Of a stretch of DNA of 64,000 nucleotides, positions 1 through 54,429 are shown in pieces. Below the pieces are notes generated by a model. That model was not told where the DNA came from. It did no database searches and saw only the letters and a list, made by a program, of their open reading frames with translations. The DNA is from Trichoplax adhaerens (taxonomy: Eukaryota > Animalia > Placozoa). The position numbers and the translations under genes were made by a program. The stretch spans positions 502,650-566,649 of the forward strand of contig NW_002060966.1 of assembly GCF_000150275.1 (NCBI RefSeq). Direction: 5' to 3'. Position 1 is the stretch's first letter; each line of letters starts with the position of its first letter.

Positions 1-1236
1 GACGAAGGAAAGGAATTGTGGTCATTAAGGTTCACTGTTAGAAAGGAAATCAATTGTGATTCAAAATGACGATAATCAATAGCTGCTAATGCTGACAAGC
101 CGCTTCATTCCAATTTTTTCAAACAACATCTGAACTCTACTTGTGCAGTTGCGAGTATCTAGTCGATAAACTTGAGTCCAGTTTTTCCGACTTGAACTCA
201 GTAACAAATTTGAAGGTGAGTAAATAATAATTAATTTCATTACAGATTGAATCAAGGTCGATTCTTCTTTACTGAACTCATCAACTAAGCATGGCAGTTA
301 TTGGCTATATGCAAGAGCTTTATGATCAATATAGAAAATGCACTATTACGTCAATGACTAAAATTTTAACTCAGTAATTGACTAAATTTTCTAATCGTAT
401 ATACCATACGGTATGTCTGTCATCAAGTTCGAATTAGTAAGTTACGTCTGAGTGACATGCATTAAATTCAATCTAATATGCTAGAAATTGGGTAAGTTAG
501 TGGTTGTTTGAGCATTCTTTACCCTGTAGTCTATAATTTTAAAAGTGAATTTTTTGGTCTTCCATTATTAGTATTCATACTTCATATTTTACTTAATTGC
601 CTGCACTGCAATCACACTAATACTCATAATTATGTTCAGAAGCAGTAATGTGTTAATTTTTATGATTAATAAAGTATCAGGAAGAACTGATCAATTCTTA
701 TCAGAAGAATTATAATTTGCACGATAGGTAGAAGATGTAAAGTTTCACCTTAGCTTAACAATTAGATTATTCTAACAACTTTGAAATATTTCCAATTTCT
801 ACCGTATCATATCTTCAACAGTTACTTTATTAGCAAGGTGAATATTTACCGTTATGGTAACTTGCAGTGTTTTCTACAATTACCAACTATAAGTCGTTAA
901 TGACAAATAATAAAGTTGTCAAATTAGGCAGCTAGCCGTCAGCCTTATATTCACCTTCTGTTCTGTCTCATGGAAGGTTGTCGAGTGGCATATTCTATTT
1001 CCTTCACAGTCATCCATCCTAGATTAATTCTTTATAGCTAACGACAACAGGCTAATCAAGCTATTTCAGTGGAAGTTATAATACATACCTTGACACATTT
1101 AACTAAGTGAGATTTTATTAGATATGTAAGAGATATTTTATTACACGCAAAACTTGACTTTATTTTACTTTGTTTTGCTAACTTTAAATCTTATTGCACT
1201 ATTTCTTCAAAGACTTCAATACTCCAGTAATTGCAA

Positions 1237-1249
1237 ATGGATATAATTG
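1237..1249 (+). CDS. TIR-domain protein, exon 1 (MDII, phase 1 donor GTAAGT)
   Basis: ATG at 1237. ATGGATATAATTG followed by a gtaagt donor. It joins in frame to exon 2, completing the Asp codon of the DVFISF motif. Confidence 0.45.
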
Positions 1250-1397
1250 GTAAGTAAAATTAAATTACACTAAAATGAATCAGTAAATTTCCATCATAAT
1301 AAGCGATAGTTGAGTAAAAAATTTATAAATTAAAATAAATTAAACCTGCTATCATAAATCTTATATGGTCTATACTATGTAATCATTACTGGTGTAG

Positions 1398-1561
1398 ATG
1401 TGTTTATTAGTTTTAACAGCACAAAGTATGATCAAGCAGAGTGTATAAAAGAGATTTTAGAAAATAGATTTCCAAACTTAAAAATAAGAATGCACGAAAA
1501 TCAAGTGCTTTCCGGAGATAATTTGACCCTAGAAAAGGATTATAACATCTGTTCCGCCAAG
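1398..1561 (+). CDS. TIR-domain protein, exon 2 (beta-A DVFISF to ...NICSAK)
   Basis: Translation is DVFISFNSTKYDQAECIKEILENRFPNLKIRMHENQVLSGDNLTLEKDYNICSAK. This is the canonical TIR beta-A/alpha-A/beta-B layout. Acceptor tag at 1395-1397, donor GTACTT. Confidence 0.6.
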
Positions 1562-1784
1562 GTACTTTTAACAATGATTGATTAGAAAACTTGCATTAAT
1601 GATAAAGGTCTGTTAAGATTTCCAATTAACCCTAAAAAGATAACCAAACAGAAGAAAACATAGGTTGATCAGGCTATCTTTTATCATTCTTATCCATATT
1701 TCTATAGCAGTGATATTGAATAACGAATAATGGTTCGAGGTATCGGTGATTCATAAGACTATTTTCTATACTTGATGCTTGTAG

Positions 1785-2072
1785 ATATTCATATGTTGTT
1801 TAAGTCAAGATTATGCAGACTCAGTATGCTGCTGTAAGGAACTGGAGCGGGCATTTGAACTGGCTAAGCCGATTATACCAGTTTTATTGGAAAATTTCGA
1901 TATCGAAAACGGACTAACCAATAATCTGACAAGGCAAAACTTATTCCCATATATCTGTGGCAGAAGATCTTTCAACCTAATTTATAATCAAGGTTTCAAT
2001 AGCTATTCCCTATCTGAAAATATGCTGCATCTTCTAGATTCATTAAAATCATGGGTAAGAATTACGTAATTT
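1785..2072 (+). CDS. TIR-domain protein, exon 3 (beta-C IFICCLS, SQDYADSVCCCKELE motif); ends at TAA 2070-2072, or splices at the TGG|GTAAGA donor after 2054
   Basis: Translation is IFICCLSQDYADSVCCCKELERAFELAKPIIPVLLENFDIENGLTNNLTRQNLFPYICGRRSFNLIYNQGFNSYSLSENMLHLLDSLKSW(VRIT*). It matches the TIR SxNYAxSxWCLxEL block. The acceptor is cttgtag. Confidence 0.55.
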
Positions 2073-5000
2073 ACTAGCCCAATATCAGGTTAAAAGTTTT
2101 TGAAAATTAATTTAGGATATATATCATATAAATAATAATAGAAATGGATATACCATGATTTATGATATATTCAATATGAGTTTATTCATATAATATTCAA
2201 TGTCGTGAGTTTATTCGCATTGCCTAGAAGAAATGTTTAAGAAGGCCAAGTTTATAATCTAGGTTGTAGGAAGTAATGACAGAATTTCAGCCATGAACCA
2301 ACATTCAAGCGCTTCTATTCACGACTCGGGCAATGGTAAATATTGTTTGTGTAAATGAATGAAAAGATATTTTTCCAAAGTAAAAATATTTCAATTTATT
2401 GTAGGATTAATAAGCGTAGGAATGAGCTTATAGTTTGTGCGATCTGGAATGATACAAAAATTTAACTAAATTATTTGATGGATAACTTTTGTTATTAGTA
2501 AATCACATCCAATAAAGTGATTGACGCCTATGTTATGATCGATGATATGAATACGTAAAAATATAATTATTTCAGCTTTTCATGAGCAAAGTAAATCTTC
2601 TAGGATTATTACTAAAAGCAAATACCGTAGATATAATTGTAAACAATTTCATTAAATTGATACAGTTTCACGAGAGATCACAGCATTCTAGCATAAACAT
2701 ACTTTTGGCTCTTAGTATATCAACAATGACATTTATATATTTATGTTTTTGCTGTTTAAATATAATGAACTCAAATGCGTCATCTCAAATACAAGCTTAG
2801 CAACATTTGTTTATTTTCTAATTTCACTTGATCAGACAGTCTGATAGTTTCTTATATATTATTTATCCTCAGCTAAAATAGAAAATTTTAGCTACGGTTT
2901 CTGACCAGCAAAATAAGTGCTTATAAAAAATATTTTTGAAATTGTTGTGATTTATCAAATTTATGAGCTTTAGCTAGTAACTTATTACTAGGTGCGATTT
3001 CATAATTTTAATATCATTTGTATTAGCTGCAACAGTGGAAGTACAGCAAAGCTGTGAGATGGATCCAAGGGCTGATCAAGGTTTGACGAACATACTTTTC
3101 TGCAATGACTACGCTGCATGCAGATTAGGCGTAATGTTTTTATATTAATCGCAAATAAGCTAATGAAAATCTAGATAAGATATAAACTGTTAAAGCAATT
3201 ATATACCATGACAACGTATAATAATGTTCGTTATAAAATAGTAGAATTACATCAGTTCATCAAAATAATGCAGAATTATGCAAGCGATAGAATTTCATGA
3301 TTTAGGTGGATTGGATACTTTTTAATAAATGCGTTTGTCATATATGCTAATGCTATGTGGCGAGGGTTATTTGAAGTTATTTTTAGCTAAAACCAGTTTA
3401 ATTATAGTACAATCCTTTTCAAGGCGTCTTTAAATAAAATTCGTTTAATATCATTGATATTCATATAATTTCAAAAATTCATTTTTATGTATTTAGCCGC
3501 CAATCCGGTCTCCAAGTTATGGTCCAGCCTACTAGACAAAATTAGTCAATTTTTGCCGGGATATTAGGTTGAACCTAACTCAAGAAAATCGGCCTTGCAA
3601 TATGTATCAAACTTTAGCAACAGCTTAGCTTGTAATACTTGATTTTAATCACTGGTCACTTGATGCTTATTAATTCACAATTAGCAGTACTTGCCAGTAC
3701 ACTAAAAAACTATTATTACAATTTGTTACCCTGCTTTAGTCGCAATTTGATAAAATATCGCAAACAAGATCTGATAGTTTTATCTATCATATTTACAGTA
3801 ATGATCATATATTCACCTTCAATGACTAGAAGATTATGTACAACGCATCCATTTTGATCATATTCTATACAATAAAATGGAAATTCCCAATAGTTTTATT
3901 CTTCAAAAATTAAAGCTATTCAAGTATTTTACCGATTGTAACAACTATGCTGATACCCTTTTGACTATTGAAGATTTAATTTATTTCTATGTGAACATCT
4001 TTCATAAAGTACCAGTATCAACGAAATAAATCACCCTAAGCAAGATGTTTTAATAAATATGGATCAATAGTTTACATACATATATTTCTAAACTTGTTGA
4101 TGATAGATAGAAGCGAGTAAAAATTGCTATAAAATCTAGACAAACTATTAGGATAATCATCAAGCATAAGTAATGAGTTATTCTATGCAATAAAACGCTA
4201 ATCGAACAGTCAAAAGCTTCAAATATTATTTTAAGAAACTTTAAGTGTAACTATATTTGGGCTGTGTAGTAAAATTGCACGAAATAGAAGTAAAAGAAAT
4301 CCAATCCCATTACCAGCAGAATTATAGAGGTATTATCTTGAAGCGAAGTTGGTATAACGATGTCATGCTGCGGTAGTGTTTGAAATGTTCAATTTGATTA
4401 GATAAAAGTACGAAAATGTTAATTCCGAAAATGTGATTGTAAATAAATACAAGACCCTCATTGAAAAACTATAATATCATTGCTAGTAAATTTTCCATCT
4501 AAATGAATGGTAATTAACTAATGCACTAAAATGATGGTATACTCTTAATGCAAGAAAATTGAATTACCTTGGTGGTACTGATATGGTTACATAGCGTTAT
4601 ATTTCTACAACAGCTTTGATTCGCGATTTTAGCTGTCTAAAAATTGATATATCGCGCGTTAAATTATTCATTGTTGCCATGCTACTACGCTTATGGCTAA
4701 TGATGAGAAAATTTTATACTTTCTAAATTAGCTGTTGCCATGCTGCATACAATAAACGGCATCCATTAAACATTATAGTTTATGTGCAACACATGCATAT
4801 ATGCACACTTCTTAGCGTAGGGTAGCAGCAAGTATCACTTGTAATGCCATTAAGATGTTATGTAACAAGCTAGTAACTACCGTAGAACAAATCCTATCAC
4901 TGCTGCACTAATAGTCTAACTGACTATGACCTGAAACTGTTAATTAAAAATGTTTAAATAGTTTAGTGCTAATACTTTTCAAAGTTACCTCTTTTTGCGA

Positions 5001-5315
5001 AATACTGGTGGTGAATATAATACACATTAGTGCATAGTAGTGATTATAGTATTTATCACCAAGAAACAATTTAGAGTGCAGCTTCCCTCAACGAGGTCTT
5101 AAATTTCAACTATATCTTTATATAAAATACACTAATCTAATGATTTTTAATTTTACGCAAATTTTATTTTCATTCTAAGTTTTGCGCAAGTTTTGACTAC
5201 GCCGTTATTATTTCATTATAAGAATCGTATTGAATCTTTGATTTGAAATTTTTCATTTTCTAAATAAGATTCGAATGAGGGCAGACCCTAACTCAGGATA
5301 CGCTTCGTACTTAAA

Positions 5316-6160
5316 GTGTACACAGGTAAGGTATCCTGTAGTGTAGAAACAGGCCTTGGTTCGAGAGTCGTGAAGGATTTAACTCGGGACTTGAAGGAGA
5401 GAAATTTTCATTTTTACATGGATAACTTCTTCACGAGTACCGAGTTATTTCTGGAGCGACCATCTAAGGGGGTATATTGCTGCGGAACTGCCAGGCAAAA
5501 CCGTAAAGGTTGGCCTCGAGAATTGCGTGGTAATAGAATCGTGAAGAAGCGAGGTGATAGTAAAAGTTTACAGTGCGGTACACTAGCAGCCTCAATTTGG
5601 TATGATAATAAACAAGTTCGTTCCTTGTTTATTACATGCACGAATCCATAAGCGTCAACGATAAAACTTAAACGCAAATCTGGTGATTCAATTGAGGTCG
5701 CTAGTCCATCAGTTGTACCTCATTATGTAAAGTTTATGGGAGGTGTGGGATAGGACTGATCAACTCAGAGCTGCCTATCCTACCAGGAGAAAGTCCAGAA
5801 AGTGATGGAAGTACCTTTTCTGGTTTTTATTAGATCAATCGATTGTAAATACATTCGTCTGCTTGTTGCAATCTGCTGATCACTGAAGGACAACGAGATC
5901 AGGGAAACACCGAAGGCGAGGACCGAAGCAGTTTCGAACGAAACTAGTGAAGCTACTAATTTCGACTTTCCTAGGGAGTCGAAAGCGTCTTTTTGATTCA
6001 AATAGGTTTGAAGACAATGATATACACTTGGTAGTGCCATCGAAGAAACCTCGTAGATGTCATTGCGGCGCGAAGAAGTTCAAATAAAGAAAGCAAACAA
6101 AATTGGAATGCGACTCGTGCAAGGTAAACTAGGATGAACTCTTCAACGTAACATAACATA
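5316..6160 (+). mobile_element. piggyBac-family transposase pseudogene (DDE_Tnp_1_7 remnant with stops and frameshifts)
   Basis: ORF 5316-5651 carries FYMDNFFTS...GTARQNRKGWP, diagnostic of piggyBac transposases. The YVKFMGGV(D) motif follows at about 5730-5760. A C-terminal CxxC...TxxxCxxC zinc-finger remnant (KPRRCHCGAKKFK*RKQTKLECDSCKV) lies at about 5990-6100. The frame is interrupted by stops, so it is not an intact transposase. No clear terminal inverted repeats were found. Confidence 0.6.
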
Positions 6161-9100
6161 TATATAAGCGATTAATAAATCGTCATCTATTTATCTCTTC
6201 ATCAAATTAGATTGGCTTGTGTGCTGAATGCTTCAAGCCATACCATGAAGAACTGAAGAGGATGCGAATGACTTTAGCTAAAGGCTGTAGCCACTGGGAT
6301 AGTACTAGTTTAATTTAATTTGTGTTAATTGATAATGCCCAGCTACCAAGCTCCTGTTATTGCGTTGCTTAGGTTTTAGGTTATATAAATTTTAGCTGGT
6401 ACTGTTTTTAGTTATAAATTGTGTATATTCAAGTTTCGTTATTGTTTTGAAATTTCTGGCGACAGCCACTGTGCTTCTGTAGTAATTAACGATGAATGTA
6501 GCTTATATAGTTTCCCTAGATAATGCTATTTAAAAATTTACGCTCGCATTGCCTTTTGTGTTAGTAGCTAATATGCTCCTGATAGAAATTATATACGATT
6601 GCCTTTGAGCCAGCTTCAGCTGCTTCCTCATTCCTTGTTATAATTCAGATGTAATAAATTTAAATCTTTACGTATTTCTAACTTGCAGTATGATTGTGAT
6701 ATTTGGGGGATATGCTTAAAAGCGCTGCAGAATAACATAAGCTTAGCTTTATTGATACGAAACTAACTATGCATCGTTTCAAACCTAATCAATCTCTAGG
6801 TTTAAACATTATCAATAGATCAGTTTATTACATTGCAAGTATTATAACATGAAGCTCTTGGTCTCTACATGAGTGACAAGTACAGCAAAGTGAAGGAATG
6901 AGACTAAGTAAACCTGAACAAAAGTTTTGTGTCCATTACGATTTTTTAAATAATATTGAAGATTGCAATAAGCTAAAATGATCTTAACATTTCTTCTATT
7001 ACTTCGCTTTATGCTCGTTGTAGCTTAAAATGTTTCCTGAATCAAGAGTAACATATTTTCTTGAATCATAGGCTTGTATTTTAATTTTTGATTCGATAGT
7101 TACTAACCCTGCATAAATATTAGCTTTGTTCGTTCGATAGATTGTTTATTTAAAACTAGTTAGTGTAACCTCCCAGGGAATTGTTTTTCTATACGAGAAG
7201 ACCTAACGTGTTGCTCACGTATATCTATGTAGTTTCTAAACTTCTTGAAATAATTGTTAGTGAGGATCCTGAAAGGATCCCTACTCTCGCAAGTACACTA
7301 CTTGTAAACTTTTCTATAAGTTCTATAGGGTAGTCCATAGCAATTCCTACTAACGTATAATAATATTGCTAATTTATTCAACAATAAGGGCGATATGTTA
7401 CCGTCGCCAGTGCATTATCAAACATAACTTATAGTCAAAACTTAATTATGATTTCTTCCAATTTGAACTTTTAATACTTATTGGTTAAGGTACCCAAAAA
7501 AATTTACGACTGTGCTCTCCTCTACGAATGGAACTTTATTGCTGAACTAATTTCCAACTAAAAACGATTACATCAAATGAAATTTTACAGAAATAGTATA
7601 GATACCTTACCAATAGCTCTCTACTTTTTGAATGGCGTAATCTTCGCCGAGCAAATGGCTTATAAGGACATTGTTTAAACGTAAGAGATATATGATAAAG
7701 TCAATCCATTAGAGCGGCTGCACGAAATAAAGGGTTAATTACTAAATATTCATTCTAAACTTTTATAGGAAAATGAATACGATAATTAAGAACTGATACC
7801 TCTATTTACATACGTTACTTTACGTAGGCTACTAGAAAGCTGAATTATTTGAAACTTGCATTTTCTAAACTTAAAAAGCTGCCGTGTAAATTGATTCGAT
7901 GTTTGCCTGTAGGATGATCAAATGGAGTATCAATACGAGAACGAGCTCATTTATAAGTTTTATTTGAATTAAACTTGTCGACTAGACTGGTCGAATTTGC
8001 TTTACGATGCACAATTCTATCATTGAAACCAGCAAATCTACCGATAAATAATCCCTAGTTTACACTCAAGGACATAAATTTGTGGTAGTCAGCTTGAAAT
8101 GCCCCCAATATATAAATTTATTAATCGATATTTAGTTGCTTTATCAAAGGAAAATATGTTATTTTAGTAGAAACCTTCTCGCGACATGAATTAAATACCG
8201 CTAATCCAATGATGAAGAAGAAGGTATTAATGCATAGAAGTTATTTAGTGTGACCGTGCGCCAGCAAAACACTGGAAAGATATATAAAGGGTCACGGCCC
8301 AAACACATAGAGAGTTTTTTACAGTTGATCTAGTTAGTGATCTGAGCTGATAAATAATAAAGTAACTCTAAACGCTATCGAATAGTCTCTCACTGAGATT
8401 AAGAAAGTTAGTCTTAGTCTGTACTATTCATCAAGAGTTAGTTTGAAGAATAGTCGGTGACAGTAAGTAGGTTAGTAGTTGCTAGCCTTGATAGTACAAG
8501 TGTCGCAGAGGAGATTTGTGACACATGGTTACATTAGCCAAGAAAGCAGTAAACGCCTGGCTAGAATATTGGAACAAGAAGCGAAAACTTTTGTGAATCT
8601 GGGTAGGTATCAAGATATTTTCACAAGTACAGTAAGTGTAAATTTACAAGATTAGGGGCTACATGAAGAAATTAGGAAATATGTTGGAGATAAATATTAC
8701 AAATTCCGCTAATTTGCCTCCCTGAAAGTATTTTAAAATTAAAAAGAAATAAAGTACGTCAATAGTCATGCTAAATTCACTATTATTTTACTATAGACCA
8801 CAAAAGATGGGTAAATAGATAATAAAATGAGAAAATTGGATCAAGATAGCAGGAATACTTTGAGTAGCCCTTTTATGGCCGCAAAATATATATACTGCCC
8901 TGATTTTTGCTTTAGTTAAGAACTATGGGTTTGACATATTTATACTTCATAATCTTAACGTAAAGTATACTTAACTAGATGTAACCGATCTCTAAATATC
9001 AATAGAGCTTGAAGGCAAATTTATATGCTCATATGCTTGTAGTAAATTATAATTTCCTATCTTTCCATTGCAACGAATTTTTAATCGAAAATTTGTAGCA

Positions 9101-9900
9101 TTACTCACGCAGGAATATTTTACATAAAATATTTTAGTTTTAACTAATATCGAAACATCATAACTACATTTGATAGAGTAAATTTTATATAAACATTTTA
9201 ATTAAAAAGTGATCTAAAGATTAGAATACTGCCGAAATCAGCACGTTACTTGGAATTTACGCTATTGAAGGTACTGGAGGTTTTTCAATTAATTATTTAT
9301 TATAAAATGGAACTGTTGCTAATATATAATCAAAGAAAATTCCACAAGAGTTGTTAGAGATCATTAAAAAGAACTGATTAGTTATCCGACGAAGAATTTT
9401 ATCATCCATTGCAAAATGAAAGTTGCGCTTTAGGTTGCAACTAAACTATAAAAAATTATTAGAACATTTTTTTAATTCATATTATTTCTTGTATAGAGCT
9501 AAACTTTATAAGAATAAAGTGGCATCTAGCAGATTTATTCAAAATTGATGTACTATTTTGATTATTAACGTAAAGTAACACTATAATTATTTTATCCGCT
9601 CCATTAGTGATATGTCGGATTTTTGCCTAGCTTTTTATCTTGATTGATACGAATATACTTCTTCATCGATGGAGTTATATATTCTAAAATATTTCATTGG
9701 AAGTGATGCCAATCGGTAATCCTGCAGTGTGCCGTCTTAAAATATCTGCCATCTATAAATACTTTATTGAGCATGCAGAATACGTCATTTTGTCGTTACC
9801 TAATTCAGCAAGAGTATTTTTAATACATATTACTATCAACTTTTGCTGAAATCATTACAACTTAGTATATAAGCGATTGCATAGCAGCTATCAATATTTT

Positions 9901-9965
9901 GGTAATTTAGTAAATTAGTTGGACAGTTAGTTAGTAGGTTAGTTAGTTAGTTGGTTAGTTAGTTG
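9901..9965. repeat. (GTTA/AGTT)n-type microsatellite
   Basis: agttagttagtaggttagttagttagttggttagttagtt, read directly from the sequence. Confidence 0.7.
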
Positions 9966-10164
9966 AATAATCAATTGGTTGCTTGTTCATAAAGTGAGAG
10001 GACACTTTTGTAAGGATTTCAGAAATTAAGATTTGTAAGCTTGAAACTAGCTGATGAAGTATTTTTTAGAGAATTGATCGGCGAACTATAGCTGAGGAAG
10101 TAATTTATCGACACAGTAGAAAATTTTAAAGTAAGAAGAATGAGATTTTTTCGATTTTGTTGTC

Positions 10165-10500
10165 ACGAAACAGCTTTGCAACAAGATAACGTAATGTATG
10201 ATTTATAAGTCAGTTCCTTGAACCACGTATCAAGCAACGATATCACCACTGTCATGAATACTTTACTCAACTAGCAAACTATACAAAGACTTAGACGCCT
10301 CATATTTTACGTTAAACACTTAGTTTAAGAATTAACTTTATTACCCGATTTACTGCAATTATACACTCTTCCTCAAGAGTTTATGAATCTTAGTTTGTAC
10401 GATTAACTTTGGAATAATTCACTGAATTAGATATTAATTTTAGCTACTGCTCCCTAATACAGACAACAGTATTTACGAATAAAGACATCTGATGACTAAC
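10165..10500. repeat. dispersed roughly 340 bp repeat, copy 1 (partner at 11945-12290)
   Basis: cagctttgcaacaagat(a/g)acgtaatg...gacttagacgcctcatattttacgttaaacac... and ttagctactgctccctaatacagacaacagtatttacgaa... recur at 11945-12290 at about 75-80% identity. Confidence 0.5.
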
Positions 10501-15066: not shown

Positions 15067-17712
15067 ATGGGTTCTGGTAGCAGTCTACAATCTAGAACGG
15101 TAGACTATAACGCAACGGCAAGAGCAATGATAGCAAAGGGTAAACGACTTCTAGATAAAGGATTATATCAAGAATCGCTTCAAGAATATCAAGATGCTTT
15201 GCAAGAGATGGATACCATTAATTCTACAAATCCTAATAGATCAAGTAACAAATTGGATAACCCCATGCTAGATATTTATCATGGCATGGCGATAGCTCAT
15301 GAGAAACAAAGCGAATGGACAGATGCAGAATCAGTGTATTATAAAATGATTCTATTGCAAGTCCAATTAACCGGAGAGAAGACCGTTCAAGTTGCTGATT
15401 TATATCGCCAAATGGGAAAATTATATTCAAAATTAAGCCAATTCAAAAAAGCTTTAATCATGCTTGAAAAATCCCTTCAAATTCGATTAGAATTATTTGG
15501 GATTGAAAATTTAAAAGTAACGGAAGCTTACGATGACCTCGCGTTGTATTATTGCCGAATGAATCGATTTCATGATGCCCAAAACAATTATGAAAAATCA
15601 TATAATATCCGTTTAAGGGAATTAGGCCAAAATGATATCGAAATCGTCAAATCATATAATAATATAGCAGATGTTCATATGCAGCAATGCCATTATAATG
15701 AGGCTTTGTCCTTCTATCAAAAATCGCTCAATCTTTGTAGACGAATTTATGGCGATAAACATCGTGATGTCGCTCAATCCTATCAACACATAGGTGATGT
15801 TGCTGTTAAACAGTTGCGATATGAAGAAGCGGCGGTCATTTATCAGACATGTTTAAATATGACTTTGGATTTATTTGGCAAAAAGCATGAAGATATTGCT
15901 CTTATATATATTAAAATGGCTGATATGCATATTCAGCAATCGGAATATCACGAAGCCATGAGTTTGTGTAAGAAAGTGCAAAAAATGTATCAGCAAATGG
16001 ATGAAAAAGAAAATCCAAATTCTACAGCACTAACGTTAAAAATAGCTAAAGTCTATCATTTACAGAGAAAATATGATTCTGCTTTAGGATTACTGCGGAG
16101 TCTATTGACAAAATTAACTCAGATATATGGGGATAGGCACGTGGATATCGCTGCTACTATGGAAGCTATATCAGAAGCAGTTTATGAACTTTTTGAATAT
16201 GAAACAGCACAAGACACTTTTGCTAAGACTTTACGTATGCGGTTAGCATTAACTGGCGAAAATAATGTCGATGTTGCGAGGATATATTTTCGCTTAGGTG
16301 ATATTAACTATGCCCGAGGTAATATTCCTGAGAGTATCAAATCTTATCTTCGATCTCTAAAAATTCGTTTAATCGTCTTCGGAGATAGCCATCCATCTGT
16401 TGCTGAAGCCGGAGATAGTATCGCGTTTATTTACATGATTTTTCGTAAGCATCATGAAGCTTTGGATTTATTCGAAAAATCGCTCAAGATCCGCTTACAT
16501 GTGAATGGCGGAATGAGTCCTAATACGGCTGCATCTTATAAAAATGTTGCTGTTATTTACTCCAAAGTTGGAAGACTGGAAGATGCCCTAGAAATGCTTC
16601 AAAAATCTCTTGATATTCGCTTGCATCTAACTGATGGCAAAAATAAAGATGTTGCTGTGTTATACGAAGAAATTGCAACAATCCATGCATTACAATCTAA
16701 ATATGAAGAAGCAATTACCGCGCTAGAGACATCATTAGAGATTCTAATACCCTTAGTGACGGAGGAACACCGGGATGTTGCCAATATTTATCTTCGTATC
16801 GGGGAAATATATAAAGCCCAAAAATTGTATAACAGGGCAGAGTTTTACTATCATAAGTCATTAACAAAGTTAATAGCAGCTATCGGGGATAGCAACTTAG
16901 AGGTATCTGGTCGTTATGAGGAATTAGCTTACGTACAATACTTGAACGAGGATTATGATCAAGCAGAAGTTTTATATGCGAAAGCTTTGGACATTCGTTA
17001 TACTGATCTGCGCCAAATAGACGAAAAAGTTGCAGAGTTGTTCCAGATACTGGGAACTATATACATGAAATTAGAAAATTATAACGACGCTCTTATGGTT
17101 TTAAATAAAGCTGTCGATGTTAGGACTCAGCTTTCAGCTGATCGCAACAGTGATTCTTTTGCCAATTTGTATCAAAATCTAGCTGCAGTTCATACTAGAC
17201 AATCAATGCAATATAATGCACAGCCTCTATTACTTAAAGCTTTAGCAATTCGAATTAAATTACACGGAGATAACAGCATTAATGTTGCTAATACATATGA
17301 GGCTATGGCTCATGATTATCAGCAACGCCAGCGATATCAAGAAGCTCTTACCATGTATCAGAAGGCCTTAAAAATTGCAGATGATCAATTAGGACCTACT
17401 CATATATTTGTTGCTCAATTATATGATTTCATCGGAGATGCCTACAAAGACTTGCATGATAACAAAAATGCAAGAACCATGTATCAGAAATCATTACAAA
17501 TTCAGGCTGATGTATTGAAATTAGAGAATCAAGACGTTTTAGACTTGTACAGTAAGTTAACTGATCTCATTCAGCAGCAAGGAGATTCTGAAGACGCTGC
17601 TTTACTGTTAAAGCAGGCTAAACTTTTGCACCAGAAATTACCAACCTTAACTACAAATAATATTTCACTTAGTAAATTAAAATACATTTTCTGGGAAGGC
17701 AATCGGTCATAA
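15067..17712 (+). CDS. Intronless 881-aa TPR-repeat protein (kinesin-light-chain/NPHP3-type TPR_12/TPR_10 repeats, about 19 units) with an N-terminal MGSGSS myristoylation-like motif
   Basis: A single 2,646 nt ORF with a 42-residue periodicity of A/Y/L-rich repeats (for example ...YEEALxxYQKSLxIRLxxxGxxHxDVAxSYxNIAxVY...). The start MGSGSSLQS has Gly2 and Ser6. No other domain is apparent. Confidence 0.85.
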   Translation: MGSGSSLQSRTVDYNATARAMIAKGKRLLDKGLYQESLQEYQDALQEMDTINSTNPNRSSNKLDNPMLDIYHGMAIAHEKQSEWTDAESVYYKMILLQVQLTGEKTVQVADLYRQMGKLYSKLSQFKKALIMLEKSLQIRLELFGIENLKVTEAYDDLALYYCRMNRFHDAQNNYEKSYNIRLRELGQNDIEIVKSYNNIADVHMQQCHYNEALSFYQKSLNLCRRIYGDKHRDVAQSYQHIGDVAVKQLRYEEAAVIYQTCLNMTLDLFGKKHEDIALIYIKMADMHIQQSEYHEAMSLCKKVQKMYQQMDEKENPNSTALTLKIAKVYHLQRKYDSALGLLRSLLTKLTQIYGDRHVDIAATMEAISEAVYELFEYETAQDTFAKTLRMRLALTGENNVDVARIYFRLGDINYARGNIPESIKSYLRSLKIRLIVFGDSHPSVAEAGDSIAFIYMIFRKHHEALDLFEKSLKIRLHVNGGMSPNTAASYKNVAVIYSKVGRLEDALEMLQKSLDIRLHLTDGKNKDVAVLYEEIATIHALQSKYEEAITALETSLEILIPLVTEEHRDVANIYLRIGEIYKAQKLYNRAEFYYHKSLTKLIAAIGDSNLEVSGRYEELAYVQYLNEDYDQAEVLYAKALDIRYTDLRQIDEKVAELFQILGTIYMKLENYNDALMVLNKAVDVRTQLSADRNSDSFANLYQNLAAVHTRQSMQYNAQPLLLKALAIRIKLHGDNSINVANTYEAMAHDYQQRQRYQEALTMYQKALKIADDQLGPTHIFVAQLYDFIGDAYKDLHDNKNARTMYQKSLQIQADVLKLENQDVLDLYSKLTDLIQQQGDSEDAALLLKQAKLLHQKLPTLTTNNISLSKLKYIFWEGNRS

Positions 17713-35390: not shown

Positions 35391-35673
35391 CTGCTATTCT
35401 TGCCAGAAGTCTATTGTTTTCCTCGACAGTAAATGCTAATGACCCATTACGTCGAACAAGATGATAATAGACGCCAATTTGTGCTTAGCTCCGTAATCTC
35501 CATATGCCAACTTATCCATTTCTTGTTGATTGTATCAGCAATAAAAAATCGATAGGTAAATGCTAGAGATTTCATTAAAACAACACTTCAAAGCGATAAA
35601 TCACAATAACCATTAGAATCTAAGTATAGAGAAATTTACGAATTTATGGTACTAATGCTTTAGTTTGGCCATA

Positions 35674-36510
35674 ATGTCACAAGATTCTAACTTTGAAATT
35701 GTAACAGCTACTATCAATCAAATGAAATGGATCATTTCTATGGCTAAAGATGAAGGATGGAATCCCGGAGAAGATGATTTTGTATTTCAGTTAGCGGATC
35801 CCACTGGTTATTTTATTGGGCTATTAAATGGAGAACCAATTTGTTGTATATCTGCGACAAAATACAACATTCAAGCAGAAATGGGGTACTATGTTGTTAA
35901 AAAAGAACACCGTGGTTTAGGCTATGGTAGGGCTATCATGCAACATAGCTTGAAATACTTGAAAGGCTATAATATTTTAATTTATGCCTTACAACATAAA
36001 ATTGGTACGTATGAAACTATAGGGTTTAAAAAACATGAGGCGATGATACGATATGCAGGAATTATAGCGAAAAAAGAGGTTATTAGTGATAATATTTATT
36101 CAGCTAGAGACATTCCTCTGGACAAAATTGTAGAATATGATGCACGTTATTTCGCAGAAGAAAGGAAAAAGTTCTTAAGTGCGTGGTTAATGATTGGAAC
36201 AGCAAACAGTTTCGTATATAAAATAGGAGATAACATTCGAGGTTTGGGGGCAATACGAAAAGCTCAAGATGGCTATCGTATAGGACCTCTATATGCGGAA
36301 ACACCGGATATCGCAATAACTTTATTTCATCGTCTTTGTCAAGACTACGAAAACTGTAAAATCACCGTTGAATGTCCTGCATCCAACGCCGATGCCAAAG
36401 AATTGGTGAAGAAGTTCAAGCTGGACAAAGTCTTTCAAGGTTCAACTATGTATTCGGGAGAGCTGCCTAAAGTTAATTTAAATCACATTTATGGCGTTAT
36501 AACTCATTAA
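35674..36510 (+). CDS. Intronless GNAT-family N-acetyltransferase, bacterial YitH-like architecture (N-terminal GNAT fold plus C-terminal extension), 278 aa
   Basis: Single ORF. The first in-frame ATG (35674) gives MSQDSNFEI.... The acetyl-CoA-binding-like motif VVKKEHRGLGYGRAIMQHSL fits the GNAT Q/RxxGxG/A pattern. The 278-aa length and two-domain layout resemble YitH-type GNATs. The ORF track's upstream TTG start at 35665 is less likely. Confidence 0.7.
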   Translation: MSQDSNFEIVTATINQMKWIISMAKDEGWNPGEDDFVFQLADPTGYFIGLLNGEPICCISATKYNIQAEMGYYVVKKEHRGLGYGRAIMQHSLKYLKGYNILIYALQHKIGTYETIGFKKHEAMIRYAGIIAKKEVISDNIYSARDIPLDKIVEYDARYFAEERKKFLSAWLMIGTANSFVYKIGDNIRGLGAIRKAQDGYRIGPLYAETPDIAITLFHRLCQDYENCKITVECPASNADAKELVKKFKLDKVFQGSTMYSGELPKVNLNHIYGVITH

Positions 36511-39019: not shown

Positions 39020-40140
39020 TATAGTACTGATTTCAAATTTTTAAAATCAGTAAAGCGATCCATCATTTGTAGCCTAGATATATCATAACCCCATTGTTGA
39101 TTTTGAAAGTCCATAACAGCACCTATTCATCTCTAGTATAATCGCATAGTCATCTAAAATCGCACGAGATGTCTAATCTCGGCATTACTGTGGAATAGGC
39201 AGCTTGAGCTAGTACCAGCAATCAGCGATCGAATGAAAGAGTTGGATGACATTGACTCGAACATTCAAAATTAGCAAAGCGATTCATCATTTATGGCCTA
39301 GAGGTGTTATAATCCCTTTGCTGATTTTGAAAGCTCAATTCTATAATAGCACGTATTGATCTCTAGTGTAATCGCATAGTCATGTAATACCATATGAGCA
39401 CCTATTAATTTGTAGCATAATCTCATAGTGATGTAGTATCCTACGAAATAAAATACTGTCTAATCTTGGCATTCCTTAGGAATAGGCAGCTTGAGCTAGT
39501 ACCAGCAATCAATGATCGATTGAATGAGTTGGATGATATTGACTCTAACTTTCAAAATCAGCAAAGTCATTCATCATTTATAACTTAAAGATGTTCTAAC
39601 CCCTTTGCTGATTTTGAAAGCTCAATTGCATAATAGCTGGTATTGGTCTCGAGTGTAATCGCATAGTCATGTCCTGTAATAGTATAGGAGATAAAATACT
39701 GTCTAATCTGTGCATTACTGTGGAATGGTTAGCTTGAGCTAGTACCAGCATTCAGCGATCAACTGAAAGAGTTGGATGATATATATTGACTCTAACGTTG
39801 AAAATCAGTAATTTATATATTATATATCAGTATATAAGGCATTACCAGCAATCAGCGATCATCTGAAAGAGTTGGATGATATTGACTGTAACTTTTAAAA
39901 TCAGCATAGCCCACAGATGTTTTAACCCCTTTTACTGATTTTGGAAGCTCAATTGCTTAATAGCTCGTATTGATCTAGATCTAGTGTAATCGCATAGTTT
40001 TATACTACCATCAGAGATAAAATACTGTCTAATCTCGGCGTTACTGTGGCATAGGCAGCTTAAGCTAGTACCAGCATTGAACAATCAACTGAAAGAGTTG
40101 GATGATGTTGATTCTAGCGTTCAAAATCAGTAATTTCTAT
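39020..40140. repeat. Satellite array A, unit about 250 bp, about 4.5 copies
   Basis: Repeating unit ...cctttgctgattttgaaagctcaatt...agtgtaatcgcatagtcatg...ataaaatactgtctaatct(c/t)ggcatt...agcttgagctagtaccagca...gagttggatgat(a/g)ttgactc.... Copies start near 39020, 39270, 39520, 39775 and 40010. Confidence 0.75.
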
Positions 40141-40251
40141 ATTATATCTGCGTATATATATATATAGATATATATCATATAGAGAGAGATATAAATAGAT
40201 ATGTATATTACATATAATATATTATTATTATATATGAGTATATACATATAC

Positions 40252-40283
<32 letters not shown>

Positions 40284-40290
40284 GGATAAA
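40140..40290. repeat. (TA)n/(GA)n/(ATA)n compound microsatellite
   Basis: tatatatatatagatatatatcatatagagagagatataaatagat...agagagagagagagg. Confidence 0.8.
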
Positions 40291-41060
40291 TATTTATTAT
40301 AGAACCGAACCGTTAGCAAGTCTAGTTGTAGGCATTTTGCCGATTTTGAAAGTTGCATTGCGCCAGAGGCTGCAGTCATCTGGAGTGTAATCGTCGAGCC
40401 ATGAAGTACTGTATGAGATAGAATACTGTCCCATGAATAGCAAGCTGTCCAAAAGACGAGCGTTGCTTAGGTCAATCAGAAATTTCCATATTATATCTTA
40501 GCATATATATATAGATATATATCTATATAAATCGATATATATCATGTTAGCAAGTCTAGTTGTAGGCATTTTGCTGATTTTGAAAGTTGGATGACACCAG
40601 AGGCTGCAGTCATCTCCAGTGTAATCGTCGAGCCATGCAGTACTGTATGAGATAGAATACTGTCCCATGAATAGCAAGCTGTCCAAAAGACGAGCGTTGC
40701 TTAGGTCAATCAGAAATTTCTATATTATATCTTAGCATATCTATAGAGATATATATCTATATAAATCGATATATATCATATAGAGAGAGATGTAAATAGA
40801 TATGTATATATATTATATATGAGTATATATACATATATATATATATAGAGAGAGAGAGAAAGAGAGGATAAATTTCTATTATAGAACCGAACCGTTAGCA
40901 AGTCTAGTTGTTGGCACTTTGCTGATTTTGAAAATTGGATGGCACCAGAGGCTGCAGTCATCTCCAGTGTAATCGTTGAGCCATGCAGAGATAGAATAGG
41001 AGATAGAATATGAGTAGCAAGCTGTCCAAAAAGACGAGCGTTGCTCAGGTCAAATCCAAT
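40290..41060. repeat. Satellite array B, unit about 250-330 bp, three copies with interspersed TA/GA microsatellite; related to array A through a shared t(t)gc(t/c)gattttgaaag core
   Basis: aaccgaaccgttagcaagtctagttgt(a/t)ggca(t/c)tttgc(c/t)gattttgaaa(g/a)ttg...ccagaggctgcagtcatct(g/c)(g/c)agtgtaatcgt(c/t)gagccatg...caagctgtccaaaagacgagcgttgct(t/c)aggtcaa recurs at 40299, 40546 and 40880. Confidence 0.75.
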
Positions 41061-41656
41061 CATAGCTTATTCACTGATAGGATTTGACTGGAAAATAGAG
41101 TCATGTATACTACAGTAGATAGTCATTTGGAGGAGGATCGAGCCTCGCGTAGGCCAAATCCAGTACTTTCAAGATCTGATAGTAAACACTATAGCACGTT
41201 CCATACTATACTTGAATGTCTATAGACAATCCAGTCGACACCAGTCAGTCCATTCAAATCCACACCAGCCGCTGTCGTCTAGCCAATCAGAGATCAGCTG
41301 CCAATCTGCTGTCTGACGATCGACTAGTATGTATCAAACATCGACGTGGTTGCATACACATTCCAGTTAAATTAGGCCACAAAAATAAGCTTGTATAAAA
41401 ATCTCCAAATGATCCATTGATCGCACTAGACTGCTAACGAAAATCTTCTCCATTAGCGGCCTTGGCAGGCGTTCTTCTTGCTCATTTTCACTTCATTTGT
41501 GGCATTTTTGCCTTGTTTTACTTATTGTAGGAGAGCGATACAATCCGATTGGTATTAAGAAAGCATTGAGTCATCTTTTTCAACTCATTTGGACTCTATG
41601 TACCCTGTAGGATTGAGTTGATTGAGAAGTGAAGAGGAAATTAACCCTTGAAAGGC

Positions 41657-48244: not shown

Positions 48245-48589
48245 CTCAATGCGATATCGCATTAAATTTCACCAAAGGAGAATTTCACTCCATTGATTAT
48301 CCTCAACATTATCCTGCTAAAAAATGTTCTTATACTATTCAAGCTCCTTCCGGTTATCATATTATATTGAATTGGCAAAGTTTTCACGTAGGATTGCCGA
48401 AGCAAAATGATCGCTGCCCCAGCGATGAAGTTGCAGTTTATAATGGCCGAATTAGTTTACACCAAGGCCGAGTAACAATGTGCGGCTATGATGGAGAAAG
48501 TGTTACATCAAGTGGAAATATTTTAACAGTGGTTTTATCTGGCTACAGCAATCGAAGGTATACAGGATTTCTGGCTAAATATTTCATAG
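48245..48589 (+). CDS. CUB-TM gene 1, exon 2 (CUB domain 1)
   Basis: AQCDIALNFTKGEFHSIDYPQHYPAKKCSYTIQAPSGYHIILNWQSFHVGLPKQNDRCPSDEVAVYNGR...CGYDGESVTSSGNILTVVLSGYSNRRYTGFLAKYFI. Shows the CUB hallmarks: four Cys, Y-P-x-x-Y-P, the GF...Y ending, and a 345-nt phase 1-1 exon. Confidence 0.8.
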
Positions 48590-49735
48590 GTAAGTTATTT
48601 TAATCCTCATAACGATATACACACTTGTAAGTATTTGGCCTTTCATTTCGTTTTGGAAGCATTGATGATTGCTTTGAAACAAAGACTGAGTATATTTAAG
48701 TTCATTTACATTTAATATTTCTAATATACGTATCAATGCAGAAGGGTGTGGGGTTTTTCGTATGGATTTTCTGTATTGTGAGCTGTACCCCTCTCGTTTT
48801 ACAAGATACTGGAAATTTAACAAATCAGATATATTTTATAAAACGGCTATTCTATAAGCTACACATACTGGTATATACGACTACAGAATTTTTAGAGTTA
48901 CATCACATAAATTGATGAACAATTTTGCGAAATGTAGCCATAATTAGCTAGAAACTGTGAGAATTACATTAATTCAAATTGTTCGACTTTCTAATGGTTG
49001 TTGTTATAGTCAATGAACCAAATATAAGGCCATTGAATATGTGATAGCTATCAGTACTTGATCTGAACCTTAATAGCAATGGCAATCCTTTCAGTATAAC
49101 AGTCTCTATTTATCCATTTATGAATGATTTTTAAGTTACTATTTAATTATCTTCTCTGACAAATTAACAAGAGCTTCATGAACAAATTCCAGAAATGATT
49201 TCGGCCATGCTCTATAGTAAATCCGGCCTTCAGTAAAATGATATTACTAATCTTCTTAGTATGCAATTTCTAAGAAGATTCAGCTTAACTTTTCCCTTAA
49301 ACATAACCACAATTGAAATAGTATTGCATAGATAGATAATAATTATTAGACTGCATTACATAGTTTAAATCGGTAACAATAAAGCGGATAATGCCGATCT
49401 GGTCTATTATGACTATCCCTTGCTTCACTGCTTTGGGTTATTTACACAGAGTAGTTTATAAATAATAATTGAGATTTACAGAGCCTCGTACATAATTGAA
49501 ATATTTGTAATGAAGCGTCGGTTCGTTATATATTACAGGTACCGTAATCTCCTAATTAACAGTATTTACTATAGCAATATACGGTAGCAATTTAGGCGTA
49601 ATAATTTCAGTATTTGCTAAACTGCATATCAACTTAATTCGGGTTTCAGTTAGCCTAAGCAAGATTTAGTACAAATTCGAGGATAATACAAATACTGTAC
49701 TAAATTTCGAATTGTTTTTTTTAACTTTATTTCAG

Positions 49736-50083
49736 AACGCATTAAATGTGCTAGTATGACCATAACAACAGATATTGGAATGCTTTCTGGCCCGCTAGCT
49801 TATCCTTGGGATTGCCTATATACGATACAGCTGGCTTCAAATCGAAATGTTAACTTTGAGTTATTGCATCATAACGTTTCATTGCGATCTAGCCAGTCCG
49901 CCTGCCTATCTTACGTTGCACTATACATTAACAATTTCACACCCAAGAACGAAATCTATCAGTTTTGCTTTGATCATATGTTTCCTCCTATGTATTCTTC
50001 GAGTTCCAATATCGCATTTGTACGATTTCGTAGTAAGGAGCAGCAAAATCCATTCTACGGGCTAACGGTTTTATATCGTTCAC
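49736..50083 (+). CDS. CUB-TM gene 1, exon 3 (CUB domain 2, divergent)
   Basis: ERIKCASMTITTDIGMLSGPLAYPWDCLYTIQLASNRNVNFELLHH...CFDHMFPPMYSSSSNIAFVRFRSKEQQNPFYGLTVLYRS. Phase 1-1, 348 nt. Acceptor tttatttcag, donor C|gtaagt. Confidence 0.7.
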
Positions 50084-50413
50084 GTAAGTTGAAAGTTCAA
50101 TTGCAGCAAAAGGTGCCATATTTACTCTCTAGTATTGTACGTATATAATATGCATAATTTTGAAGTTATAACTACAGGAATTTTTCAATAATTCAATTTC
50201 ATTGGCTATTAAATGAGATATAGAATAAAGTATAAAAGTAAAATTCTGATACATTTGTACAAGCAAAACCTCACAGCTATAGAAATTTAGTACAGTGTAT
50301 TTTATTGAATTATTTATTTAAAGCTCAAAATGACATTTTCTTGTGCGTTGCTATTATTACTAGCTCTACACTTTGATAGCATAATCCACTAATTATTGCT
50401 ATTGCTTTTGTAG

Positions 50414-50604
50414 ATTTTGTTACTCATTCTTCTCCTACAAAAAAAACATCGGTGCCAGAACATAACATAGCTGTTAGAATTGTCTTAATCATAGCTATAG
50501 CATCAGTAGCATTGACCGCTATTTGCTGCTCTGGATATCATGGGCGAAAATACTACAACAGACGTATTGAAAATCCTGAAGAAGTAGAGCCACTACAGCA
50601 ATGA
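50414..50604 (+). CDS. CUB-TM gene 1, exon 4 (stalk, TM helix VRIVLIIAIASVALTAICC, short cytoplasmic tail, stop)
   Basis: Acceptor gcttttgtag. A 19-residue hydrophobic helix is followed by basic GYHGRKYYNRR. TGA at 50602-50604. Confidence 0.65.
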
Positions 50605-52942: not shown

Positions 52943-53000
52943 ATGAAGGTTGTCTTATTAACATTATTGTTCTTTATTACCATTGCCACGACCGTTCAGG
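52943..53000 (+). CDS. CUB-TM gene 2, exon 1 (signal peptide MKVVLLTLLFFITIATTVQ)
   Basis: ATG at 52943, donor G|gtgagt, phase 1. Confidence 0.65.
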
Positions 53001-53212
53001 GTGAGTTTTATAATTAAATAATCTCAATTAACCATTTTCTTTATTTTATTCTCAGTTACTCTAAGTTACAACTAATTAAAGACCGACAACCTTTGTATAG
53101 CGTTAGGACTAGCGTCATTTATTTATGGACTTTTCTCTCAGTCCGTTGTAGCTATGTTCTGTTTAATTTAATCATCGGTGTTTGAGTAACCTTTTATTTC
53201 AATTCTTAATAG

Positions 53213-53557
53213 CAAGTTGCAATATCACACTAACATCAAGGAGTGGCAGTTTTAAAAGCCCATATTATCCTCAAATGTATAATCGCACATATTGTTACTA
53301 CTCCATTTTCGTTCCCAGTGGCTACATAATTCGATTACATTGGCAGACATTTGATGTTGGCACACCTCAGACTTTCAGCAAATGTCATGGCGATAAAGTA
53401 ACAGTTTATAATGGATACAAAAGACCAGGTACTAAGAAAGTGGAGCTGTGTGGTCAAAAGAAAAAGTCTTTTTCTTCAACATCCAATCGTCTTACGGTTG
53501 TGTTCGATGGACGCACTAGTCGCAAATATCGAGGCTTCTATGCAGTTTATGATACAA
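53213..53557 (+). CDS. CUB-TM gene 2, exon 2 (CUB domain)
   Basis: ASCNITLTSRSGSFKSPYYPQMYNRTYCYYSIFVPSGYIIRLHWQTFDVG...CHGDKVTVYNG...CGQKKKSFSSTSNRLTVVFDGRTSRKYRGFYAVYDTS. 345 nt, phase 1-1. Acceptor ttcttaatag, donor A|gtaagt. Confidence 0.8.
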
Positions 53558-54429
53558 GTAAGTCTTCCTCTCTTCATCATCAACAAAATTAATAGAAATT
53601 ATACTTAACAATTTTAATTAAAACAAGGTAACACAAATTATACTATTTGTTCTGTCCTTGTAGTAACCCCTATCGTAATGAGCAGCTACTAATTAAACTT
53701 ATTCCAACAATTTAACTATATAGCTGTTATTTAGAATTTGACTTTCTTTGCAAGTAAAACTTTTTGGTATGATATTCGGCTTGGATTTTAATTGTAATAG
53801 AATTAATGCGTACTTTAGATACCCCGATGGCACGGTATGATTTTAAAATGATAGATTATTTTTTAAATTAGCAGCCAACCAATTTACTATATATTGGCCA
53901 ACTGCAGCAGGACAAATTCATTATTAACTACCGTACCTACGCAAAGATTTCATTGAAGCACAAATCTAACAGCACGTATTAATTTCGATGGATCTTAATC
54001 TCAAAGAGCAAATACAATTGATCGTTCTTGGACCATCTTTAGAGAACGACATTGCATCTAATACCTGATAGTAACAATTAAATTGATGCCTTACTTTCCT
54101 ATTTGATAGATTAATATCAAACTATAAAATCTTCCTGCTAACGACTGAGGGTCGACATTAAAGCCGAGTATTAAATAACAGTAACTTGCAATTATGGCTA
54201 AATTTTAAGATCGATGTCTAGCTTGTACTTATGTAGTAGGATAGATAGAATAACAAGGTAGCTTCCATTAATAATAATATAGAAATGCTAAGTTGTAATA
54301 GCATTTGCTTATATTACACAAACTAGATTTATATGGCTGCAATGCATGCTGAACTTGTTGATTGAATAGACAGAAATAGCTAAACTCTTAATTATTATCC
54401 GGCTAAAGAATTTTATCGCTTATATTAAG

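Follow-up and report, generated by a model that had tools for sequence, protein, structure and literature searches.

The locus described here raises the question whether a small animal protein that appears to consist of a TIR domain (named for the Toll and interleukin-1 receptors) and nothing more is an enzyme, an adaptor or a relic. It lies in a stretch of 64,000 nucleotides of the Trichoplax adhaerens genome (contig NW_002060966.1, positions 502,650 to 566,649 of the forward strand), referred to below as the window, which is AT-rich eukaryotic DNA of 28-37% G+C. An initial annotation, made from the letters of this sequence, had proposed three exons of a TIR-only gene between positions 1237 and 2072, and had taken a conserved glutamate of the predicted product as a sign of a possibly enzymatic rather than scaffolding function. 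The locus is an intact three-exon gene with canonical splice sites, and its product, as deduced from the coding sequence, appears to be a ~150-residue cytosolic protein consisting of one TIR domain. The gene is already known, being public as TRIADDRAFT_61590 (T. adhaerens, H1) and TrispH2_009718 (Trichoplax sp. H2), and the 13-nt first exon of the initial annotation is a real improvement on the database models. As to function, we lean, tentatively, towards a TIR assembly module without catalytic activity, which would dock on other placozoan TIR proteins as an adaptor or a regulator.

Structure of the Gene and Its Product

The gene is arranged as follows (slashes mark exon boundaries):

1237..1249 (+): exon 1, the ATG and 10 nt, encoding M-D-I-I and the first base of Asp5; ATGGATATAATTG/gtaagt
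1250..1397 (+): intron 1, 148 nt, GT..AG, 22% G+C, with H1/H2 differences at 1256 and 1318
1398..1561 (+): exon 2, ggtgtag/AT...CCAAG/gtac, encoding strand βA (DVFISF), helix αA, strand βB, the BB loop (Gly44) and the start of helix αB; Ser9 is at 1409-1411, and Met36, the start in the public annotation, at 1490-1492
1562..1784 (+): intron 2, 223 nt, GT..AG, present in both public models
1785..2054 (+): exon 3, cttgtag/ATA...TGG/gtaaga
2055..2069 (+): possible read-through tail, VRIT and TAA, the alternative to the use of the 2054 donor and the 3' end of TrispH2_009718

Exons 1-3, which the initial annotation had placed correctly, join in frame through canonical splice sites into an open frame of 447 nt that encodes a TIR domain protein of 149 aa (MDIIDVFISF...SQDYADSVCCCKELE...SLKSW; complete product, MDIIDVFISFNSTKYDQAECIKEILENRFPNLKIRMHENQVLSGDNLTLEKDYNICSAKIFICCLSQDYADSVCCCKELERAFELAKPIIPVLLENFDIENGLTNNLTRQNLFPYICGRRSFNLIYNQGFNSYSLSENMLHLLDSLKSW). 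Reading through the donor of exon 3 would give a product of 153 aa with the stop codon TAA at 2067-2069, so the end originally assigned to the gene, 2072, lies about 3 nt too far. The chance of 149 codons free of a stop at 31% G+C, as estimated from base composition, is ~6e-6, and therefore the gene is not a chance product. The frame 5' of Met36 is open back to a stop at 1355 and contains no ATG there, which means that a 5' exon is needed. The 1.4 kb upstream offers eight ATG exons of compatible phase, and 1237-1249 is the sole one to combine a good donor with a good start context: its donor (TTG/GTAAGT) matches 7 of 9 consensus positions, as compared to at most 5 in the remaining candidate exons, and its start codon (ttgcaaATGG) is in a Kozak-like context, with A at -3 and G at +4. 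The sequence of exon 1 is identical in the Trichoplax sp. H2 contig. We infer the expression of the gene, its 5' and 3' ends and any function of its product from sequence.

The spliced 149-aa product scores 50.6 bits with the Pfam profile TIR_2 (PF13676; gathering cut-off 28, E=3.3e-13), and with the profile TIR (PF01582) it exceeds the cut-off narrowly (22.2 vs. 21.3 bits); exon 3 by itself scores 26.8 bits. Both profiles thus agree with the domain assignment of the initial annotation. The elements of the TIR core, namely box 1 in βA, a Ser or Thr ending βC, an aromatic residue of the CC loop and a hydrophobic βD (PMC7075850), are all present, as DVFISF (residues 5-10), IFICCLS66, Y69 and PIIPVLL, respectively. 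No signal peptide, transmembrane segment or further Pfam domain was found in the ~150-residue protein. The structure was modelled for the 118-aa public protein, which starts at Met36. With an alignment of 112 rows, AlphaFold predicted alternating β and α elements at moderate confidence (pLDDT 70.3); with an alignment of 9 rows the pLDDT was 53.8. The top matches of the model in a Foldseek comparison with the PDB were all TIR domains (SPARTA TIR-APAZ, RPS4, RPP1, SNC1, and AbTir), although weak ones (E of at least 0.02, TM of at most 0.66). The predicted structure is consistent with a TIR fold.

The last 114 residues of the product are 100% identical to RDD38350.1, the hypothetical protein TrispH2_009718, and the product clusters with XP_002117531.1 (TRIADDRAFT_61590, UniProt B3SBE8), the “TIR domain-containing protein” of T. 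adhaerens. In each of the two public models TIR is the only domain, and each starts at Met36, lacking exon 1, strand βA and helix αA. Models that begin at Met36 score 38.0 bits on TIR_2, as compared to 50.6 bits for the 149-aa product; the N-terminal 35 residues add 12.6 bits and cover profile positions 1-32. The 149-aa version is the construct to express, as the database models without βA and αA would not fold. This corrected N-terminus is the practical result of our analysis, which otherwise has little import beyond curation. A full-text literature search revealed no paper naming TRIADDRAFT_61590.

Relatives of the Protein

In an exhaustive HMMER search, the public 118-aa protein used as a query gave 131 proteins at E <=1e-3 (best E 1.5e-14). 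The best relatives are large proteins in which a Death domain is combined with two TIR_2 domains; between the BB loop and βD they are 37-42% identical to the query. The sources of the top ones are an annelid, a nemertean, bivalves, gastropods and rotifers (Dimorphilus, Mercenaria, Rotaria, Tubulanus, Mytilus, Haliotis, and others), and none of the twenty top or sampled matches that were looked up was of placozoan origin. A profile search revealed many further members of the subfamily, of 100-260 aa. Some of them come from complete genomes (Haliotis, Branchiostoma 'tirA-like'), and many others lie on very short contigs and probably represent fragments.

The subfamily is recognizable by the signature SYQW...Y-x-x-S-x-x-C-x-x-E...KPIIPLLLE, and the family consensus reads SYQW..Q...W.DI.QMGGGDSL..KID.G.R..KV..SCVT.KY..S.NC.REV.L...L.KPIIPLLLE...WPP.GP. 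Overall, the Trichoplax protein is 24-29% identical to any relative. It keeps all invariant columns (S9, G44, D45, L47, D52, C64, Y69, S72, C75, E78, and P91) and has lost the family residues QMGGG, Trp12, Asp37, Asn74, Arg76, and WPP. Such a pattern suggests a long-diverged, long-constrained, lineage-specific offshoot of the animal TIR_2 subfamily. For a profile search of the PDB, we used a family alignment without SARM1, since the version including SARM1 was biased. Among solved structures, this profile ranks Cat1, AbTIR and other bacterial TIRs first, followed by SARM1 (29.7 bits, E=4e-6), and all of them ahead of TLRs.

Putative Catalytic Residues and Tested TIR Domains

One reading of the protein, possible although we regard it with doubt, is that of a TIR-only NAD+-consuming enzyme, in which two TIRs would form a composite site where Glu78, together with Ser9, would generate a cyclic ADP-ribose (cADPR)-type signal or deplete NAD+. 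The residues concerned are retained. Glu78, encoded by GAA at 1839-1841, aligns with E642 of SARM1, Ser9 aligns with S567, and Gly44 with G601 of the BB loop. In SARM1, S567 lies 2.6 Å from the Glu and has been reported as required for activity (10.1101/2025.04.09.647920), and mutation of E642 or G601 lowers the NAD+ hydrolase activity (PMC8266388). In the model of the 118-aa version, Glu78 (Glu43 there) is inside helix 38-49, that is, αC. The same column is occupied by Glu in all 34 aligned TIRs of the screen described by Hurieva et al. in a 2026 preprint (MAFFT alignment). The initial annotation had therefore assigned this Glu correctly to the catalytic position.

The WCxxEL-type motif of that annotation stands as regards the Glu, while its Trp does not: the αC motif is C74-C75-C76-K77-E78-L79 (C-C-C-K-E-L), with Cys74 in place of the WxxxE aromatic residue at -4. 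In addition, βB ends with His37 where SARM1 has Asp594. A candidate rule that active TIRs need both an aromatic residue at -4 and an Asp ending βB was rejected, as it is broken by the active domains of Latimeria, Clupea, Adineta, and TLR4. The motif is N-C-K-K-E in Latimeria and S-C-x-x-E in Clupea and Adineta (Table S4 of the 2026 preprint), and TLR4 is active despite a His ending βB. Because there are active TIRs with N or S at -4 or with a His at the end of βB, Cys74 and His37 do not exclude activity, and these four domains are a point in favour of an enzyme.

Around αC there are five Cys in 14 residues (1794-1835, residues 63-76; CCLSQDYADSVCCC), of which the family conserves only C64 and C75. 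The three consecutive Cys that directly precede Lys-Glu78 are peculiar to the Trichoplax protein.

An enzyme would also be in line with the assignment of the protein to the TIR_2 class and with the preference of the family profile for Cat1, AbTIR, bacterial TIRs, and SARM1 over TLRs. Moreover, the active animal TIR proteins of the 2026 screen include some in which TIR is the sole domain (bioRxiv 10.64898/2026.04.20.719644). On the other hand, the Glu is conserved in >70% of TIRs, the non-catalytic ones included, and its frequency does not track enzymatic activity (PMC7075850); as evidence for catalysis, Glu78 is weak. Most non-TLR animal TIRs keep this residue, and only 12 of the 61 Glu-bearing animal TIRs in the screen were active, making cyclic ADP-ribose or depleting NAD+, whereas 49 were inactive (10.64898/2026.04.20.719644). 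The Trichoplax domain was set against 34 TIRs of Table S4 that had been tested or served as controls (the TIR_2-like ones and a few domains of TLR type or from the controls), and each of its seven nearest matches was inactive: Rhizoclosmatium (the best one, 42.5 bits), Lepisosteus, Branchiostoma #150, Echinococcus, Phallusia, Dictyostelium Q54HT1, and Chlamydomonas #149. Adineta, in eighth place, was active. In two TIR clusters that have T. adhaerens members (B3S268_2 as the representative of one, B3S2N0_3 as a member of the other), both tested members, which are from other species, were negative. B3SBE8 itself was not found in the accessible part of the preprint tables. Further points against an enzyme are the lack of the SARM1-specific loop insertion and of Trp638, which has a role in SARM1 (PMC8266388), and the fact that the structural model covers the 118-aa version only, at moderate confidence. 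With the Glu so widespread, 12 of 61 domains active and the seven nearest ones inactive, the step from this residue to an enzymatic rather than scaffolding function is not supported.

Adaptor or Enzyme

A non-catalytic assembly module is the reading we prefer over an enzyme because the Glu is uninformative, 49 of the 61 tested animal TIRs and the seven nearest ones are inactive, the tested cluster members are negative, and Kamm et al. (2019) have proposed placozoan TIR-only proteins as alternative adaptors. On this reading, the TIR-only protein would self-associate or dock via its BB-loop surface. Its partners may be other placozoan TIR proteins, that is, the MyD88-like CARD-TIR and further TIR-domain proteins, and the outcome could be the adaptation or regulation of innate-immune or cell-death signalling.

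Several points weigh against this preference. Among bacterial and plant proteins, those with a single domain and no output domain are typically enzymes. Both the Ser-Glu pair and the Gly of the BB loop have been kept although QMGGG, WPP, Trp12, and Asp37 have been lost, and the best solved matches of the family profile are enzymes, which stand ahead of TLRs. The assay in E. coli missed 5 of 14 known catalytic controls (AaTIR, type II ThsB, RUN1, RPS4, and RPP1), and hence the negatives of this heterologous assay are soft. The comparison of H1 and H2, described below, cannot tell constraint from patchy divergence, and the expression of the gene, its exon 1 and its 3' end are themselves all inferred.

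If, as may tentatively be considered, the protein were a minimal self-sufficient TIR enzyme with a Cys-rich C-C-C-K-E αC in an animal without nerves or dedicated immune cells, placozoan TIR-only proteins would be effectors in the bacterial and plant manner and not MyD88-like adaptors. They would then be a counterpart of the TIR-only effectors of plants and bacteria, as well as of those animal TIR-only proteins whose activity was reported in 2026. An active protein would add a placozoan data point for catalysis as the ancestral TIR function, which is incremental and not surprising. The initial annotation had presented a TIR-only protein as unusual in an animal, which is at odds with the literature: such proteins are listed among the 16 TIR proteins of Trichoplax sp. 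H2 by Kamm et al. (2019), and active ones appear in the 2026 screen. With TIR-only Trichoplax proteins catalogued in 2019 and Glu-bearing, sometimes catalytic non-TLR animal TIRs described in 2026, a specialist would not be surprised by this gene.

Constraint and the 3' End of the Gene

A less probable explanation, which we consider unlikely, is that the locus is a relic, silent or in decay: a lone TIR copy that strayed from a multi-domain gene and was left, open but unused, beside a transposon relic. The comparison of H1 and H2 bears on this possibility. The window and the H2 contig NOWV01000181.1 share 99.64% identity, and the differences are distributed unevenly, with 33 in positions 1-4200 and 4 in 4201-10381 (window 1-10381 vs. 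L001 8513-18892 of the H2 locus). The region 1319-2098, which contains exon 2, intron 2 and exon 3, has no differences, as compared to 7.5 predicted from local density (P=5e-4), and the 447-nt coding sequence has none, as compared to 4.3 (P=0.013). With the overall density of 0.36%, 1.6 differences would be expected in the coding sequence, with P(0) of ~0.2. The difference-free stretch also spans 346 nt of intron and flank. As the divergence is patchy and this stretch includes intron and flank, the H1/H2 pattern is weak support for constraint.

H2 holds an extra copy of window 4038-4370 at L001 18913-19245, beside a duplicated stretch of ~197 nt.

The ends of the two public models differ. In addition to the read-through into VRIT and a stop codon (the H2 model), the following segments come into consideration downstream of exon 3:

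2263..2335 (+): Ser-rich open segment (VVGSNDRISAMNQHSSASIHDSGN), phase-compatible with the exon 3 donor, without a Pfam match; synonymous H1/H2 difference at 2319
3027..3080 (+): tail exon in the T. adhaerens model (LQQWKYSKAVRWIQGLIK), doubtful and without a domain; one H1/H2 difference, nonsynonymous (V to A)
3497..3535 (+): last exon in the T. adhaerens model (PPIRSPSYGPAY and a stop codon), also doubtful; one H1/H2 difference, nonsynonymous (I to T)

The H1 model splices from exon 3 to 3027-3080 and 3497-3535, and these tail exons match the window exactly; the splice to 2263-2335 is the third version. None of the three versions of the 3' end adds a domain recognized by Pfam. The suggestion of the initial annotation that the Ser-rich segment might contribute a further domain gained neither a Pfam match nor any other support.

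In favour of a relic, no protein derived from a transcript assembly was found in a collection of 15 billion proteins beyond the two genome-annotation models, neither annotation pipeline found the full-length model, and protein searches gave no ortholog from another placozoan genus. The loss of near-invariant family residues (QMGGG, Asn74, Arg76, and WPP) points in the same direction, as does the piggyBac-type relic 3.2 kb downstream, and H1 and H2 are too close for the 1.6 differences expected in the coding sequence to prove constraint. However, the gene retains 149 open codons and three intact canonical splice junctions. The preservation of every invariant, fold-critical residue at ~25% identity argues for purifying selection during most of its history. 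The lack of H1/H2 differences in 1319-2098 also speaks against decay. Furthermore, the TIR exons have no H1/H2 differences, while both doubtful exons at the tail of the H1 model have one each, nonsynonymous in either case.

Neighbouring Genes and the Apparent Stand-Alone Architecture

Next to the TIR gene, the following elements were identified in the window:

5292-5648 (+), perhaps together with 5887-6084: remnant of a transposase of the piggyBac type (DDE_Tnp_1_7, 66.8 bits, covering only profile positions 186-277)
15067-17712 (+): uninterrupted ORF (open reading frame) of 881 aa, all of it TPR repeats (TPR_12 359 bits; nephrocystin-3-type TPR 180 bits)

The upstream gene on the + strand encodes a TPR protein of 1876 aa, and its stop codon lies 3.6 kb before exon 1 (H2 locus L001 1-6154, outside the window). 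The TIR gene has, therefore, TPR genes on both sides in the same strand. These neighbours raise the possibility, which we regard as very improbable, that the three exons are a part of a longer multi-domain gene, for instance one with the upstream 1876-aa or the downstream 881-aa TPR protein (TPR-TIR). Apart from the neighbours being TPR proteins of the same strand, this reading is favoured by the frequency of TPR-TIR architectures in the TIR cluster to which several of the tested TIRs nearest in sequence belong, and by the donor of exon 3, a good phase-0 site from which the T. adhaerens model splices onward.

The evidence against a longer gene is more extensive. Between the upstream TPR gene and exon 2, the + strand contains no ORF of at least 60 aa, and exon 1 offers a well-placed ATG. 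The 881-aa TPR ORF has an ATG of its own, 75 nt past an in-frame stop, with no pyrimidine-rich acceptor there, the candidate acceptors being purine-rich. A Pfam scan of the longest open segments over the 13 kb that follow the TIR gene revealed no domain-coding ORF save the piggyBac relic, and the onward exons of the H1 model amount to 30 aa with no domain and with nonsynonymous H1/H2 differences. The window contains no second TIR domain. A tblastn search with a full-length Death-TIR-TIR relative found exon 3 only, with no Death domain and no other TIR exons. In line with the initial annotation, the gene appears to stand alone: it has a single good ATG exon, and no domain-coding ORF was found 3.6 kb upstream or, the piggyBac relic apart, 13 kb downstream. 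A TIR-only protein is thus the best reading of the locus, as far as the sequence allows one to judge.

Several other observations concern these neighbours. The upstream 1876-aa TPR gene includes an 833-aa Ser/Asn/Gln-rich ORF without a Pfam match. A death-fold or CARD C-terminus of that gene, which next to the TIR would resemble the Death-TIR arrangement and was suspected by eye in a 130-aa ORF, was supported neither by Pfam nor by a sequence search of the PDB, and was rejected. The start of the 881-aa TPR ORF, MGSGSS, resembles an N-myristoylation motif. The piggyBac relic is not a called gene in the H2 locus.

Other Features of the Window

Farther downstream, the window contains features unrelated to the TIR gene:

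35665-36510 (+): intronless ORF of 281 aa, a GNAT-type acetyltransferase (Acetyltransf_18 101 bits, Acetyltransf_1 44 bits) of host-like composition
40137-40379 and 40776-41063 (-): two ORFs that resemble each other, MTAASGA.Q.SKSAKC.QLDLLTVRFYN..., with a TA-rich tract translated as YIYIYI after each
48367-60894 (+): at least 6 ORFs with one CUB domain each (maximum 82 bits)

The two ORFs of the - strand are copies of a repeated element, ~640 nt apart. The ORFs with CUB domains look as if they belonged to a gene, or genes, with several CUB domains, each in an exon of its own.

Comparison with Known Systems

The closest relatives in sequence, the Death-TIR-TIR proteins of ~900-1570 aa (e.g., A0A7I8WDS4 of Dimorphilus gyrociliatus), belong to the same TIR_2 class and share with the Trichoplax protein the pattern S9, G44-D45, Y69-x-x-S72-x-x-C75-x-x-E78, and KPIIP(V/L)LLE. 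The Trichoplax protein differs from them in lacking the Death domain, the long N-terminal region, the second TIR and the CaaX-like C-terminus, as well as the family QMGGGD, the Asn at -4, the WPP motif, and Trp12.

With TIRs of the TLR/IL-1R/MyD88 type (PF01582), the protein shares the predicted TIR fold and box 1, and the His that ends βB is found also in TLR2 and TLR4. Nevertheless, it scores far better on TIR_2 (50.6 bits) and has no LRR, Ig, Death, or transmembrane part, and TLR structures rank far below bacterial TIRs and SARM1 in the search with the family profile.

The similarity to SARM1 comprises the predicted TIR fold and the residues Ser9, Gly44, and Glu78, which match S567, G601, and E642. 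In contrast to SARM1, to which it is ~20% identical (only 2.6 bits in a direct phmmer comparison), the Trichoplax protein has neither ARM nor SAM domains and shows a gap opposite the SARM1-specific loop (622-635). Of the residues for which mutational data are available in SARM1 (PMC8266388), Trp638 is replaced by Cys, Asp594 by His, and Tyr568 by Phe.

Among active animal TIRs, the TIR_2 domains of short proteins of Latimeria (H2ZXV5, 296 aa) and Clupea (A0A6P8EVF3, 236 aa) are N-terminal, at 3-140 and 4-138, respectively. Their αC motif, S-x-(N/S)-C-K-K-E-L, has no Trp and is close to S-V-C-C-C-K-E-L of the Trichoplax protein. The direct similarity is, however, weak (6-7 bits), and those proteins keep SYQW and WMD and have a measured activity.

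Like the TIR-only NADases of plants and bacteria (BdTIR, RBA1, AbTIR, and ThsB), the Trichoplax protein appears to stand alone or nearly so and carries a Glu in αC. Those enzymes differ from it in having an aromatic residue at -4, and AbTIR gives only 3.5 bits in a direct comparison. The Trichoplax gene has introns, a host-like base composition and animal relatives, and so is not a recent transfer.

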